Below the pieces are notes generated by a model. The model ran no database searches, was not told the origin of the DNA, and was given only the letters and a program-made list of their open reading frames with translations. Shown here piece after piece: positions 10,785 to 52,038 of a stretch of 64,000 bases of DNA (positions within the stretch are counted from its first letter, which is position 1; every line of letters starts with the position of its first letter). Where the stretch lies: the NCBI RefSeq assembly GCF_044647545.1, contig NZ_CP172818.1, one strand, 5' to 3'. This DNA is from Escherichia coli. GTDB taxonomy: Bacteria; Pseudomonadota; Gammaproteobacteria; Enterobacterales; Enterobacteriaceae. Both the position numbers and the translations under genes were made by a program.

Positions 10785-11278
10785 TAAGCCCCCACGTAAT
10801 TCCCTGACAGATACCACTCATCACCCGATACAGCGCGCTTGCTGCTTTTCCGTAAACACTGCTCACGACGCGCCAGAAAATTGTTTCGTTCTGGCTGGGA
10901 GTGGCTTTCACGGAATGCCGCCATCCACACCGTTGCAGCACGACGGTATAAGCCCCTGGACTCCAGTTCTTCCGCCTGGCGGGTCAGGCACAAAATCACC
11001 CGGGGATCGTTAGTGCCGACATAGAAATTGCGCACAGGTCTGGTTTCACGAACTGGTTGTGGTTCCGGCTCCTGCGCTCTCTCAGTCAGGCGTGGGAAAT
11101 GTCTGCGTGTATCTCCTTCACAACGGTGAGCCACACGCCCACTCTGACGTAACTTGCTTGCTGACTGCAGAACGCGCTGCCGTGAGTAACCTGCAAAAGC
11201 ATCCGCAATGTCTCCGGAAGTACACCCCGGATGGGCTTCAATGAATTTCTGAACGTCATTTAACAGACTCATGATCAC
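10784..11278 (-). CDS. yfdN: Prophage PerC-family protein (putative transcriptional activator homolog)
   Basis: 164 aa ORF; C-terminal AEELESRGLYRRAATVW matches the PerC/Pch signature; ATGA overlap with upstream yfdO. Confidence 0.7.
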   Translation of the reverse strand: MIMSLLNDVQKFIEAHPGCTSGDIADAFAGYSRQRVLQSASKLRQSGRVAHRCEGDTRRHFPRLTERAQEPEPQPVRETRPVRNFYVGTNDPRVILCLTRQAEELESRGLYRRAATVWMAAFRESHSQPERNNFLARREQCLRKSSKRAVSGDEWYLSGNYVGA

Positions 11279-11643
11279 CCCCTGAATCCTGCCGGGATCT
11301 GGCTGTAGTCCACGTTGTCGTAACTGGATTTGAAGTACGGGTCTTCGCGTTTTTCGGTGTACGTGCTTACGGACGGCGATAAGCGCAGGGAAAGCTCATC
11401 CCATTTTTCCCGCAGCTTCGACGGGCTGAGCACGTTACGGCACCAGAACGGATCGCGGCTGACGCGGCTGTACATCTCGCAGATTTGTTTGTGAGTACGA
11501 CCATCCTGCACACACATCAGGCGAATTTCGTTTGCCCAGGCTGTCCAGTTCGGTTCTTTGGGACGAACCACCTCGCCGTCACATTCGGCGGCTTGCTCGT
11601 ACAGGGCGATGATTTTTTTCCAGAGCCACTGTGCGCAGGTCAA
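11275..11643 (-). CDS. yfdO: Defective phage replication protein O-like fragment (C-terminal domain only)
   Basis: Conserved-looking C-terminal ~145 aa of the 292 aa ORF; no ATG before it, putative TTG start gives about 122 aa; the N-terminal part of the long ORF is antisense to yfdP and looks non-coding. Confidence 0.5.
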   Translation of the reverse strand: MTCAQWLWKKIIALYEQAAECDGEVVRPKEPNWTAWANEIRLMCVQDGRTHKQICEMYSRVSRDPFWCRNVLSPSKLREKWDELSLRLSPSVSTYTEKREDPYFKSSYDNVDYSQIPAGFRG

Positions 11644-11964
11644 ATCATCCTGCGTTCCCCACTGGCGCTTTTTAGGGCTGAATACAACCGCATCAGGATG
11701 GCGAGTTAAAAACTCCTGTTCAGCCGTTTGCGTGTCCGGTTGCGAAGCGTCCGGACGAGAAGAGGTTTTATTCTCTGCGCTTTTGATTTTACGACGTCCG
11801 GACTTCACGGTAAACCCGTTGTTTCCCCCACAATGACCTGACGGGCAGATTTGATGCGCAGATTTTGACGGGTCTGAGTGTGACGGTTGAGAAAAGGAGG
11901 CTGCCGGGAGCTTCCAACGTTTTGCGGAGAAACATCGGCCTGCAATATGATGAGGAGCAGCAAA

Positions 11965-12327
11965 ATGGCTAGCGAACGCAGTACTGATGTGCAGGCATTT
12001 ATTGGGGAGCTGGACGGCGGCGTATTTGAAACCAAAATCGGCGCAGTTCTCAGTGAAGTCGCTTCCGGTGTGATGAACACGAAAACCAAAGGTAAGGTCT
12101 CGCTCAACCTGGAAATCGAACCATTTGATGAGAACCGTGTGAAAATCAAACACAAACTCTCATATGTTCGCCCGACTAACCGCGGGAAAATTTCCGAAGA
12201 AGACACCACCGAAACGCCGATGTATGTCAATCGCGGTGGTCGCCTGACTATTCTGCAGGAAGACCAGGGACAATTACTGACTCTTGCCGGTGAACCTGAC
12301 GGAAAACTCCGCGCAGCAGGTCGTTAA
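11965..12327 (+). CDS. yfdP: Prophage protein YfdP (unknown function)
   Basis: ORF 11887-12327; start chosen at ATG 11965 preceded by GAGGAG, giving the 120 aa form. Confidence 0.65.
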   Translation: MASERSTDVQAFIGELDGGVFETKIGAVLSEVASGVMNTKTKGKVSLNLEIEPFDENRVKIKHKLSYVRPTNRGKISEEDTTETPMYVNRGGRLTILQEDQGQLLTLAGEPDGKLRAAGR

Positions 12328-12392
12328 TATCGCTTTTAATAAACTGATTATTTATCTCATCACTGAATATCTTTATATAGTGAGGACTTATT

Positions 12393-13217
12393 ATGTCTCA
12401 GAACTTAGACGCAACCGCAATTAATCAAATCCATGCCCTTATTTCTGCTCAGGGTGTTAATGAAATTATCAATAATATTGGTGCCGATGCTGTGGCATTG
12501 CCTGAGAATTTCCGCATTCATGATCTGGAAAAATTTAATTTAAATCGCTTCCGTTTCCGTGGTGCACTTTCCACTGCCAGCATCGATGACTTTACCCGTT
12601 ATTCTAAAGATCTTGCAGATGAAGGCACCCGCTGCTTTATCGATGCCGATAATATGCGAGCAGTCAGTGTGCTTAACCTGGGTACTATTGATGAACCAGG
12701 TCACGCAGATAACACCGCCACTCTCAAACTGAAAAAGACAGCACCGTTCTCTGCTCTGTTGTCTGTTAATGGCGAGCGTAACTCCCAGAAGTCACTGGCA
12801 GAATGGATTGAAGACTGGGCCGACTACCTTGTGGGCTTTGATGCTAATGGTGACGCCATTCAGGCAACCAAAGCGGCTGCGGCGATCCGTAAAATCACAA
12901 TTGAAGCGAACCAGACCGCTGATTTTGAAGACAATGACTTCAGCGGCAAACGCTCCCTGATGGAGTCTGTCGAAGCGAAGACCAAAGACATTATGCCAGT
13001 GGCATTTGAATTTAAATGCGTTCCGTTTGAAGGTCTGAAAGAACGTCCGTTTAAATTACGCCTCAGCATTATCACTGGCGATCGTCCTGTACTGGTTCTG
13101 CGCATTATTCAGCTGGAGGCGGTGCAGGAAGAAATGGCTAACGAATTTCGTGATCTGCTTGTTGAGAAATTCAAGGACAGCAAAGTAGAAACCTTTATTG
13201 GTACTTTCACCGCCTGA
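12393..13217 (+). CDS. yfdQ: Prophage protein YfdQ (DUF2303 family, unknown function)
   Basis: 274 aa ORF with good RBS context; same strand as yfdP/yfdR. Confidence 0.7.
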
Positions 13218-13344
13218 TTTCATTACTGCAAATGCCCCTGCGGGGGCATTTATGGAAACGTAATTTACTCAATAATCGCCGGATGGTGAGGGATTCTTTT
13301 TACCAGAATTCAGCGCGGTGCAGCGCATATACGTGGAGAACAAA

Positions 13345-13881
13345 ATGTCATTTATCAAAACTTTTTCTGGGAAGCATTTTTATTATGACAGGATAAATAA
13401 AGACGACATCGATATTAACGATATCGCGGTTTCCCTTTCAAATATCTGTCGCTTTGCCGGTCATCTTTCGCACTTCTACAGCGTCGCCCAACATGCGGTT
13501 CTTTGCAGCCAGTTGGTGCCGCAGGAATTTGCTTTTGAAGCGTTAATGCATGATGCAACAGAAGCGTATTGCCAGGACATTCCCGCACCACTGAAACGCC
13601 TTCTTCCTGACTATAAACAAATGGAAGAAAAAATAGACGCCGTAATCCGTGAGAAATACGGGTTACCCCCAGTTATGAGTACGCCCGTGAAATATGCCGA
13701 TCTCATCATGCTGGCAACCGAACGCCGCGATCTCGGGCTTGATGATGGCTCTTTCTGGCCTGTACTGGAAGGTATCCCGGCAACAGAGATGTTCAACGTG
13801 ATTCCACTGGCTCCAGGCCATGCCTACGGGATGTTTATGGAACGCTTTAACGAATTATCGGAGTTACGAAAATGCGCATGA
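13345..13881 (+). CDS. yfdR: HD-domain phosphohydrolase (5'-deoxynucleotidase-like) YfdR
   Basis: ORF 13318-13881; HD motif region (H..HD...E) around SVAQHAVL / LMHDATEAY; start chosen at MSFIKTF (178 aa). Confidence 0.75.
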   Translation: MSFIKTFSGKHFYYDRINKDDIDINDIAVSLSNICRFAGHLSHFYSVAQHAVLCSQLVPQEFAFEALMHDATEAYCQDIPAPLKRLLPDYKQMEEKIDAVIREKYGLPPVMSTPVKYADLIMLATERRDLGLDDGSFWPVLEGIPATEMFNVIPLAPGHAYGMFMERFNELSELRKCA

Positions 13882-14234
13882 ATGTTTTCGAAATGGAAGG
13901 ATTTCTTCGCGGGAAATGTGTACCGCGAGATCTGAAAGTGAATGAAACGGATGCTGAATACCTGGTGCGTAAATTTGATGCGCTTGAAGCTAAATGTGCA
14001 GCACTGGAAAACAAAGTAATACCAGTGTCAGCTGAACTGCCGCCAGCGAATGAAAGTGTTCTGTTATTTGATGCTAATGGAGAAGGCTGGCTGATTGGCT
14101 GGCGTTCTCTCTGGTATACATGGGGGCAAAAAGAAACCGGAGAATGGCAGTGGACATTTCAGGTCGGGGACCTTGAAAACGTCAACATCACTCACTGGGC
14201 AGTAATGCCAAAAGCACCGGAGGCTGGAGCATAA
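13872..14234 (+). CDS. yfdS: Prophage protein YfdS (unknown function)
   Basis: 120 aa ORF overlapping the yfdR stop (translational coupling). Confidence 0.7.
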   Translation: MRMNVFEMEGFLRGKCVPRDLKVNETDAEYLVRKFDALEAKCAALENKVIPVSAELPPANESVLLFDANGEGWLIGWRSLWYTWGQKETGEWQWTFQVGDLENVNITHWAVMPKAPEAGA

Positions 14235-14389
14235 TGACCACTTTACCGATAAAGAACTGATTAAAGAAATCAAAGAGCGAATCAGCAGCATGGACGTGCG
14301 AGACAATGTTGAGCGCCGTGCTTATGAAATTGCTCGCACCGCTGCAGGGGACACCATCCTTGTGTTTATCCCTAAAACCACATAAAAAC
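14234..14389 (+). pseudogene. yfdT-like small phage ORF with lost start (1-nt frame change after the ATG); spans the attR core
   Basis: ATG at 14234 overlaps yfdS stop (TAATG) but reads only MTTLPIKN*; the adjacent frame encodes a start-less 48-codon ORF (HFTDKELIKEIKERISS...IPKTT*). Confidence 0.4.
14342..14356 (+). repeat. 15-nt copy of the argW 3' end (CTGCAGGGGACACCA): prophage attR core
   Basis: Exact match to the last 15 nt of tRNA-Arg(CCU), including CCA, about 3.9 kb from the truncated argW. Confidence 0.6.
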
Positions 14390-14455
14390 CGTAAATTATT
14401 AAATTCGCACTAGCAGTGCCGAATAAGGCACACCAGGAACTCGTGGTCTTATTCA

Positions 14456-15391
14456 TTATGAAGTGGTTTTTACCTGTTCTCTTAACCAAGTAATAAATGC
14501 CTCAATTTTTGGCCACTGCCTGCCCGGTAATGTGGTGATGTAATAATGCTGATGGCATTTCACCGTCATATCGCCAAACGGCGCGACGAGCTCACCACTG
14601 GCAAGCCTTTTTTGTACCAGGCGTTTTCTTCCCATCGCTACCCCAATATGATTCATCGCAGCGATAACAGCTAAATCAGAACGATCAAAGCCAATCCCAG
14701 AAGATGTCGGCAAATTAACCGCATAATGTTGCGCCCAACTATGCCATTCATCCGTACCGGAGTCGTTGCTCCATGCCTGTCTGTCATGGAGCAACGAACA
14801 GTGGCGCAGGTTAATTACCTGGTTGGTTAAAGCATGTCTTTGAGCGTATTCCGGGCTACATACAGGCAAGATTTCTTCATCCATCAGAAAGTGATGAGCC
14901 AATTGCGCTGACGGCGCATCATCAAAGTAGATCGCCAAATCGATTCCGGCACGTTGCAAATTGACATTGTCATTACCAGTGAGCACGGTGAGCGAAATAG
15001 ACGGATATCGGCGTGTAAAGTCACCTAATGCGGGCACCAACCAGCATTGGGCGATAGAGGGCCGGGAATACAGCGTTAACGTTCCCGATAATTCCTGATT
15101 TTTGATATCAAGAATTTCCTGGTTCAGGGTATCCAGCGACGATTTTAGCGCCCAATAAACGCGTTTCCCCTCGTGCGTTAATTCCACTTTGCGATGGGAA
15201 CGAACAAACAACTGAATACCTAATTCTTCTTCCAGATGATTGATACGGTGACTTACCGCACTGGGGCTCAGCGACAATTCCTCTGCCGCAAGGGCGAAGG
15301 ACTGATGCCTGGCAGCCACTTCAAAAGTATGCAGTTTTGATAGTTGCCAGCCGTTAAGCAGTCGATTTCTTATTTCACGAAGGGGTTCCAT
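14456..15391 (-). CDS. dsdC: LysR-family activator of D-serine detoxification DsdC
   Basis: ORF 14456-15397; N-terminal HTH (LSKLHTFEVAARHQSFALAAEELSLSPSAVSHRI); divergent from dsdXA; start chosen at MEPLREI. Confidence 0.85.
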   Translation of the reverse strand: MEPLREIRNRLLNGWQLSKLHTFEVAARHQSFALAAEELSLSPSAVSHRINHLEEELGIQLFVRSHRKVELTHEGKRVYWALKSSLDTLNQEILDIKNQELSGTLTLYSRPSIAQCWLVPALGDFTRRYPSISLTVLTGNDNVNLQRAGIDLAIYFDDAPSAQLAHHFLMDEEILPVCSPEYAQRHALTNQVINLRHCSLLHDRQAWSNDSGTDEWHSWAQHYAVNLPTSSGIGFDRSDLAVIAAMNHIGVAMGRKRLVQKRLASGELVAPFGDMTVKCHQHYYITTLPGRQWPKIEAFITWLREQVKTTS

Positions 15392-15608
15392 AATCACCTC
15401 ATTTTTCTCTTAAGTGTAAAAAAATAGCGGCAAAATTTCAGCTGCAAGGTGAACTAAAGTGAACCATATCTCAATTCACCTTCATTTTTAGATGTAAATC
15501 ACTCCCTTGATGCAATTTAGCTCACGTGAAAGGCAAATTTTATCGTTTGTCAGCCTGCGTTGTTTTTTTGTCCAATATCATCAGGTTAATCACAGGGGAA
15601 GGTGAGAT

Positions 15609-52001: not shown

Positions 52002-52038
52002 GACCATACAGGGATAATTCCCCGGTTTTTTACGCCTG

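Follow-up and report, generated by a model that had tools for sequence, protein, structure and literature searches.

A start-less yfdT-like reading frame beside the argW attachment core of an Escherichia coli ST648 assembly, probably created by a reference-guided chimera

Introduction

What is the small open reading frame that follows the yfdS homologue at the argW-dsdC locus of Escherichia coli contig NZ_CP172818.1: a gene silenced by one missing base, the remains of a decayed prophage, or a construct of the assembly? The sequence considered here, referred to as the window, is the whole stretch of 64,000 nucleotides taken from this contig, and all positions are counted from its first letter. 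We address the reading frame itself, then the attachment site in which it ends, the insert that contains it and the surrounding backbone, before weighing the possible origins.

The reading frame and its homologues

The yfdS stop and the next start overlap as TAATG (14232-14236). Reading from the ATG at 14234 yields MTTLPIKN*, 8 codons, with the TGA ending at 14260. Another frame, 14239-14385, stays open for 48 codons as HFTDKELIKEIKERISSMDVRDNVERRAYEIARTAAGDTILVFIPKTT* and runs through the att core; its sole start codon is ATG 14290, which opens an ORF of 31 aa. Both the eight-codon reading and the frame crossing the core had been described correctly in the initial annotation, and the TAATG overlap reflects the native yfdS/yfdT arrangement. 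As 5 kb contain 79 ORFs of 20 aa or longer, a 48-codon open frame is in itself unremarkable. For the last 16 residues of the peptide, the coding sequence consists of junction, tRNA core and bacterial DNA. The features of this part of the window are the following.

13872-14234, plus strand: yfdS homologue, 120 aa, with a weak DUF551 match; its stop TAA (14232-14234) overlaps the yfdT start
14234-14260, plus strand: native yfdT start, 7 more codons and TGA (MTTLPIKN*); position identical to that of the K-12 yfdT start
14239-14335, plus strand: remnant of yfdT-family coding sequence (codons 3-35), shifted in frame (BLASTP and PHROG N-terminal matches)
14241-14242, no strand: missing-A site; homologues ACC ACA TTT, window ACC AC- TTT, private to this assembly
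14290-14385, plus strand: only start-bearing ORF of the shifted frame, 31 aa, MDVRDN...PKTT (ORF list)
14336-14341, no strand: junction hexamer GCACCG; compared with the sister prophage allele GCTCTGGCATCGCTGG, 2 nt are lost and there is one T>C change, with CTG in common with the core
14342-14357, no strand: KplE1/CPS-53 core, which is the 3' end of argW, a tRNA-Arg gene (sequence match)
14358-14455, no strand: bacterial DNA, the argW-dsdC spacer; from 14342 on the sequence is 100% identical to empty-site ST648 genomes
14456-15397, minus strand: dsdC, LysR-type regulator, intact (ORF and comparison)

The peptide is indeed yfdT-like, as had been proposed. BLASTP aligns its residues 2-32 with residues 4-34 of K-12 YfdT (26/31 identical, 84%, E=2e-17) and with residues 4-34 of a 276-aa protein of the MINF_9A dusA prophage, the latter at complete identity (31/31, 100%, E=1e-19). 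Four PHROG families of unknown function (phrog_5117, phrog_660, phrog_60 and phrog_3323) match the N-terminal part only, phrog_5117 with E=1.3e-10 over residues 2-32; no Pfam family was found for the YfdT-like protein. Sequence homology thus places the peptide in the YfdT family. The other attributes of a member are missing: the ATG at 14234 stops after 8 codons and provides no in-frame start, and the homology ends at residue 34-35, short of the full length of both the short form (101 aa) and the long form (269-276 aa).

Two lesions distinguish the window from its homologues. In the DNA alignment, which took in K-12, BS-04, H10407, MINF_9A and WP4-S18-ESBL-09, the homologues read ATG ACC ACA TTT ACC and the window ATG ACC AC- TTT ACC. 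Every one of the 16 homologous loci fetched reads ACCACATTTACC / TAATGACCACATTTACC, the window form occurring in 0/16, and an exact DNA scan of JGI metagenome contigs did not find the missing-A allele. The initial annotation was right that one base is missing just after the ATG, but placed it in the TTT run; what codon 3 (ACA) has lost is its A between C and T, outside any homopolymer. At all of these homologous loci start and body are in frame.

The second lesion is a truncation. Homology stops at ~14335-14344 and gives way to GCACCG and the att core. Approximately 613 bp of K-12 sequence are absent after yfdT codon 35, comprising the 3' part of yfdT, torI and the attR phage arm; the K-12 stretch without a window counterpart corresponds to L001 1983-2595, arm and torI included.

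The attachment core and argW

The core, CTGCAGGGGACACCAT, measures 16 nt (14342-14357) rather than the 15 nt initially assigned to it, and is present in a single copy in the window; the 16-nt duplicated KplE1/CPS-53 core sequence is given in PMC2951348. Of the parts that constitute an attR, the core and the dsdC-side flank are present, with an exact match at 14342-14357, and the phage arm from torI to the core is absent. The partner elements are missing as well: there is one core and hence no attL core, and neither intS nor torI has any homology in the window. The locus had been taken for a genuine prophage attR, but the evidence presented below suggests that the entire insert is an assembly construct.

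At the opposite end of the insert, argW is reduced to its 5' 41 nt and a garbled remainder, in which the 3' half reads GG-CTA-TTG-----TCGATTAAGGAGG. ARAGORN detected no tRNA-Arg in the window, and the sister genomes have the intact gene. As a separate observation, K-12 carries upstream of torI (L001 2283-2300) the sequence TTGCAGGTTCGATTCC, a 16-nt exact copy of the argW T-arm region that is distinct from the attR core and may be the trace of an older or longer att sequence.

Composition of the insert

The window is ordered fadJ-fadI-fadL-yfdF-mlaA-yfdC, a 3.8-kb insert, and dsdC-dsdX-dsdA. Collinear at ~95% identity with K-12 CPS-53 from yfdM' to yfdT, the insert is composed of two blocks separated by a patch:

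10459-10517, plus strand: argW 5' 41 nt with garbled remainder; no functional tRNA-Arg(CCU)
10518-11777, minus strand: block 1, a methyltransferase fragment, yfdN and part of a yfdO-like gene; 1260 nt, 100% identical to a dusA-site prophage
11778-11945, no strand: private garbled patch of 168 nt with many small gaps, replacing 207 nt of K-12-only CPS-53 sequence
11946-14335, plus strand: block 2, yfdP-yfdQ-yfdR-yfdS-yfdT'; 99.9% identical to the dusA-site prophage of ST648-type genomes

This structure appears to be confined to one assembly. Nothing similar was found among 5,426 complete E. coli genomes, and exact DNA scans of GTDB representative genomes and JGI metagenomes did not find the junction. 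Exact-protein look-ups of the YfdS homologue and of DsdC, both of them too widespread to discriminate, revealed the window structure at none of the places shown, the junction-spanning ORFs were not found in a collection of 15 billion proteins, and two window-specific proteins occur on exactly one NCBI contig, of 4,499,902 bp.

The sequence of the blocks matches that of a prophage residing elsewhere. WP4-S18-ESBL-09 and MINF_9A carry at dusA a lambdoid prophage that has yfdN, yfdP-yfdQ-yfdR-yfdS and, after these, a long yfdT-family gene in intact form, and the exact YfdS-homologue protein is widespread among dusA-site prophages. Block 2 differs from the MINF_9A copy only at 14242, where a base is missing, and at 14277 (A>G), and from the WP4-S18-ESBL-09 dusA prophage by 1 mismatch and 1 gap (99.9%). 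Identity of 99.9% over block 2 is reached in only 5 of the 5,426 genomes, the next best value being 99.1%. The divergence from the sister prophage allele is concentrated at the end: four differences (losses of 1 nt and of 2 nt, A>G and T>C) lie in the last 103 nt of the block, and the preceding 2,296 nt contain none.

K-12 CPS-53 can be aligned to the dusA prophage only at K-12 7003-8259 and 8467-10881, and the perfect blocks of the window map to K-12 7003-8259 and resume at 8467. Both ends of block 1 lie exactly on K-12/prophage homology limits, and three of the four block ends overall coincide with such limits to the nucleotide. Where the patch lies, the dusA prophage has a 3.4-kb immunity region; for segment 11770-11925 the best match in the 5,426 genomes is 86% over half its length. 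The K-12-only stretches, from intS to yfdL and from the yfdT 3' part through torI to the attR arm, are absent from the insert.

Backbone and sister genomes

The backbone outside the insert is that of an ST648 clone. Against FDAARGOS_497, positions 14342-64000 show 0 substitutions and one 11-bp loss, and both this genome and WP4-S18-ESBL-09 have an intact tRNA-Arg gene ~100 bp from dsdC, that is, an empty att site. The 11-bp loss (TAAAAAAGCCG, 52010-52011) is a private allele in the nupC/pdeA terminator hairpin, adjoining the site of IS186 in K-12. In the yfdF-like gene (7164-8223), an 8-nt A-run at 7516-7531 stands where the sister has 196 nt, one 189-nt repeat copy among them; K-12 is without the 189-nt repeat copy, and the window combines the K-12 structure with ST648 sequence and 7 extra A at the join. 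This change had been interpreted as a single-base homopolymer event, a reading that the comparison with the sister contradicts. A jumbled patch at 293-421, in the AT-rich yfcV-sixA spacer downstream of sixA, displays ~25 small indels and substitutions relative to an otherwise identical sister; K-12 is collinear in this spacer and too diverged to align, and the patch allele occurs in 0 of the 5,426 complete E. coli genomes, its best match (90.5%) being the sister allele. The only clean substitution is CCAGG>CCAAG at 8636 in mlaA, at a Dcm site, which is a classic hot spot of 5-methylcytosine deamination and a context prone to basecalling errors.

With the exception of 8636, all differences from the sister fall where K-12 differs structurally from ST648 or is too diverged to align. 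The source contig, at 4.50 Mb, is 0.4-0.8 Mb smaller than the ST648 complete genomes examined (4.94-5.31 Mb). The concern about assembly quality voiced in the initial annotation was justified, and more broadly than its author suspected. As a side observation, BS-04 shows a different garbled sequence at the same IS186 spot (L028 370-400).

Origin of the insert and of the reading frame

What process could have joined dusA-prophage sequence to the argW site along boundaries that largely coincide with limits of homology to K-12? The homologies, breakpoints, sister-genome states and private patches described above are direct observations, whereas how the assembly was made and what the strain really looks like is what we infer. 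In our judgement the insert, and with it the yfdT ORF, is probably a chimera generated by K-12-guided assembly of an ST648 isolate. As expected of such a product, the blocks are bounded by the limits of homology to the reference and accessory DNA is missing.

We hypothesize that an ST648 isolate was assembled on a K-12-type skeleton, its own sequence showing up at every place that could be aligned to the reference. In the real strain argW would probably be intact beside dsdC, as it is in the sister genomes, and the yfdN to yfdT sequence would belong to the lambdoid prophage at dusA, where the yfdT-family gene would be intact (269-276 aa). Reads of this prophage may have been laid on the homologous parts of K-12 CPS-53, with the K-12-only stretches that received no coverage (intS-yfdL, and the yfdT 3' part through torI to the attR arm) being dropped or garbled, insertions relative to the reference being lost, and the sequence near some coverage edges becoming error-rich. 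The missing A at 14242, situated in the error-rich last 100 nt of the block, would then probably be an edge error, and the yfdT ORF would be a composite whose 5' ~100 nt derive from the gene of the dusA prophage, the remainder being the right half of the empty argW site.

Several observations complicate this explanation. Positions 1-481 of the window are ST648 sequence that BLAST cannot align to K-12 (MG1655); to account for them, another K-12-like reference or reads with anchors in sixA and yfcV would be needed. The loci concerned are natural hot spots (the yfdF tandem repeat, the IS186 target and the argW att site), so that their coincidence with K-12 differences is weaker evidence than it appears at first sight. 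The CTG microhomology at the junction is a trait that real deletions also show, and clipping at the attL core does not readily predict the garbled 3' half of argW.

Two other technical scenarios were considered and set aside. Pure short-read mapping onto MG1655 fails to explain the ST648-specific positions 1-481. A long-read assembly with unpolished patches but a real structure explains the error-dense patches, but not the K-12-defined block limits or the size of 4.50 Mb.

A biological alternative sees in the insert a CPS-53/KplE1 relic that really exists at argW and has decayed heavily, and in the reading frame a pseudogene fragment without function. One deletion would have removed the sequence from the argW 3' half through yfdL, and another that from yfdT codon 36 through torI to the attR core; gene conversion from a co-resident dusA prophage would have homogenised the shared blocks, and a neutral 1-nt deletion in yfdT would have followed. 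Such a history accords with the architecture, which is collinear with K-12 CPS-53 from yfdM' to yfdT at the canonical argW/dsdC site, with the CTG microhomology of the junction and the 9/16 similarity between the yfdT sequence and the core, with the high base accuracy of the flanks, and with deletion being a common form of decay in prophage relics. Nevertheless, we regard it as unlikely. In sisters that show 0 SNPs over 50 kb the site is empty and argW intact, which would make the acquisition, both deletions and both conversions of a full block very recent events. Nor would one expect conversion tracts to stop, at three block ends, on the last nucleotide of homology, and the deletion end points likewise coincide with homology limits. 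The CPS-53-only patch, which is private, is far more diverged than the coding blocks (~80%, with numerous small gaps), none of the 5,426 complete genomes has the structure and its proteins are known from a single assembly, and the 4.50-Mb contig is abnormally small. The full biological consequence, namely that an ST648 strain lost a functional argW (tRNA-Arg CCU) and retains a 3.8-kb CPS-53 relic repeatedly converted by its own dusA prophage as far as the homology borders, with deletions then trimming the rest, strikes us as rather improbable; if true, it would document natural inter-prophage homogenisation together with the loss of a tRNA gene. A deletion mediated by IntS at the yfdT pseudo-core was also considered and rejected; the similarity to the core is the 9/16 mentioned above, and the event is unnecessary if the insert is an assembly chimera.

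In principle, the reading frame could be a small yfdT-like gene that is intact apart from one wrongly sequenced base, so that one added base would restore its function. A base supplied after ATG ACC AC does fuse start and body, as the initial annotation anticipated, and the resulting MTTFTDKEL... matches the homologues at the protein level. What is restored is a frame rather than a gene: the product has 50 aa, with just 34 YfdT residues out of the 101 (K-12) or 269-276 (prophage) before the junction, and junction, tRNA core and bacterial DNA supply its C-terminal 16 residues. Since the gene breaks off after codon 35, where it is joined to the core, repairing the base would not recover it. The position of the missing base outside any homopolymer also speaks against such an error, and among the homologues none was seen that naturally ends near residue 50. 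The alignments contradict this explanation, which we consider very improbable.

A functional product, either a 31-aa micropeptide started at ATG 14290 or the outcome of a programmed frameshift that leads from ATG 14234 into the long frame, is scarcely credible despite the open frame and the available ATG 14290, given that all 16 homologous loci are in frame and none needs a frameshift, that 14237-14260 contains no X XXY YYZ slippery site, that the exact 31-aa sequence is absent among 15 billion proteins, and that scans for promoter- and terminator-like signals gave nothing above chance and Rfam no match at the locus.

Implications

Whether it arose as an assembly chimera or as a relic, the 48-codon ORF is a non-functional fragment and not a gene. 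The main import of the locus is a warning about data quality; the fragment is dead either way and reveals no new biology. If the assembly is indeed chimeric, a public genome misplaces dusA-prophage genes at argW, shows a destroyed tRNA-Arg gene along with false yfdT and yfdF frameshifts, and is missing several hundred kb of accessory genome. Inferences about pseudogenes, prophages and gene content drawn from it would then be misleading, and the same caution may apply to other 4.5-Mb K-12-like assemblies.

Comparison with known systems

The yfdT gene of K-12 (CPS-53/KplE1, 101 aa, WP_000206809.1) resembles that of the window in lying directly after yfdS with the TAATG overlap; it differs in that the window has no counterpart of residues 36-101, whereas K-12 continues with torI and the attR arm. 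With the long-form YfdT of dusA prophages (269-276 aa; WP_201519818.1, WP_000206745.1; phrog_60, phrog_5117) the window shares residues 4-34 at 100% and the upstream DNA at 99.9% over 2.39 kb. In those prophages, however, the gene is intact, and genes for a 3'-5' exonuclease and a PrtN-like protein come after it, while the window holds its first 12%, frameshifted.

The attR of KplE1 (Panis et al., PLoS Genet 2010, PMC2951348; Viruses 2012, PMC3509656) has the same 16-nt core and dsdC flank as the window. The 135-bp attR substrate for in vitro excision includes the phage arm between torI and the core (PMC2951348, PMC3509656); in contrast to KplE1 attR, the window is without the phage arm, torI, intS and a second core.

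A further parallel is offered by BS-04 (NZ_CP172819.1, 4.52 Mb, K-12-like), which like the window has a prophage-type yfdT 5' part extending to the homology limit, private garbled sequence at the K-12 IS186 site and a comparable genome size, but which keeps the K-12-type yfdT 3' part, torI and attR that the window drops. Its yfdT (L002 1523-2189) is a hybrid, prophage-type at first and then the K-12 allele, and its yfdS is frameshifted. BS-01 and HS-01 are similar in size to BS-04, and all three may share the suspected reference-guided origin.
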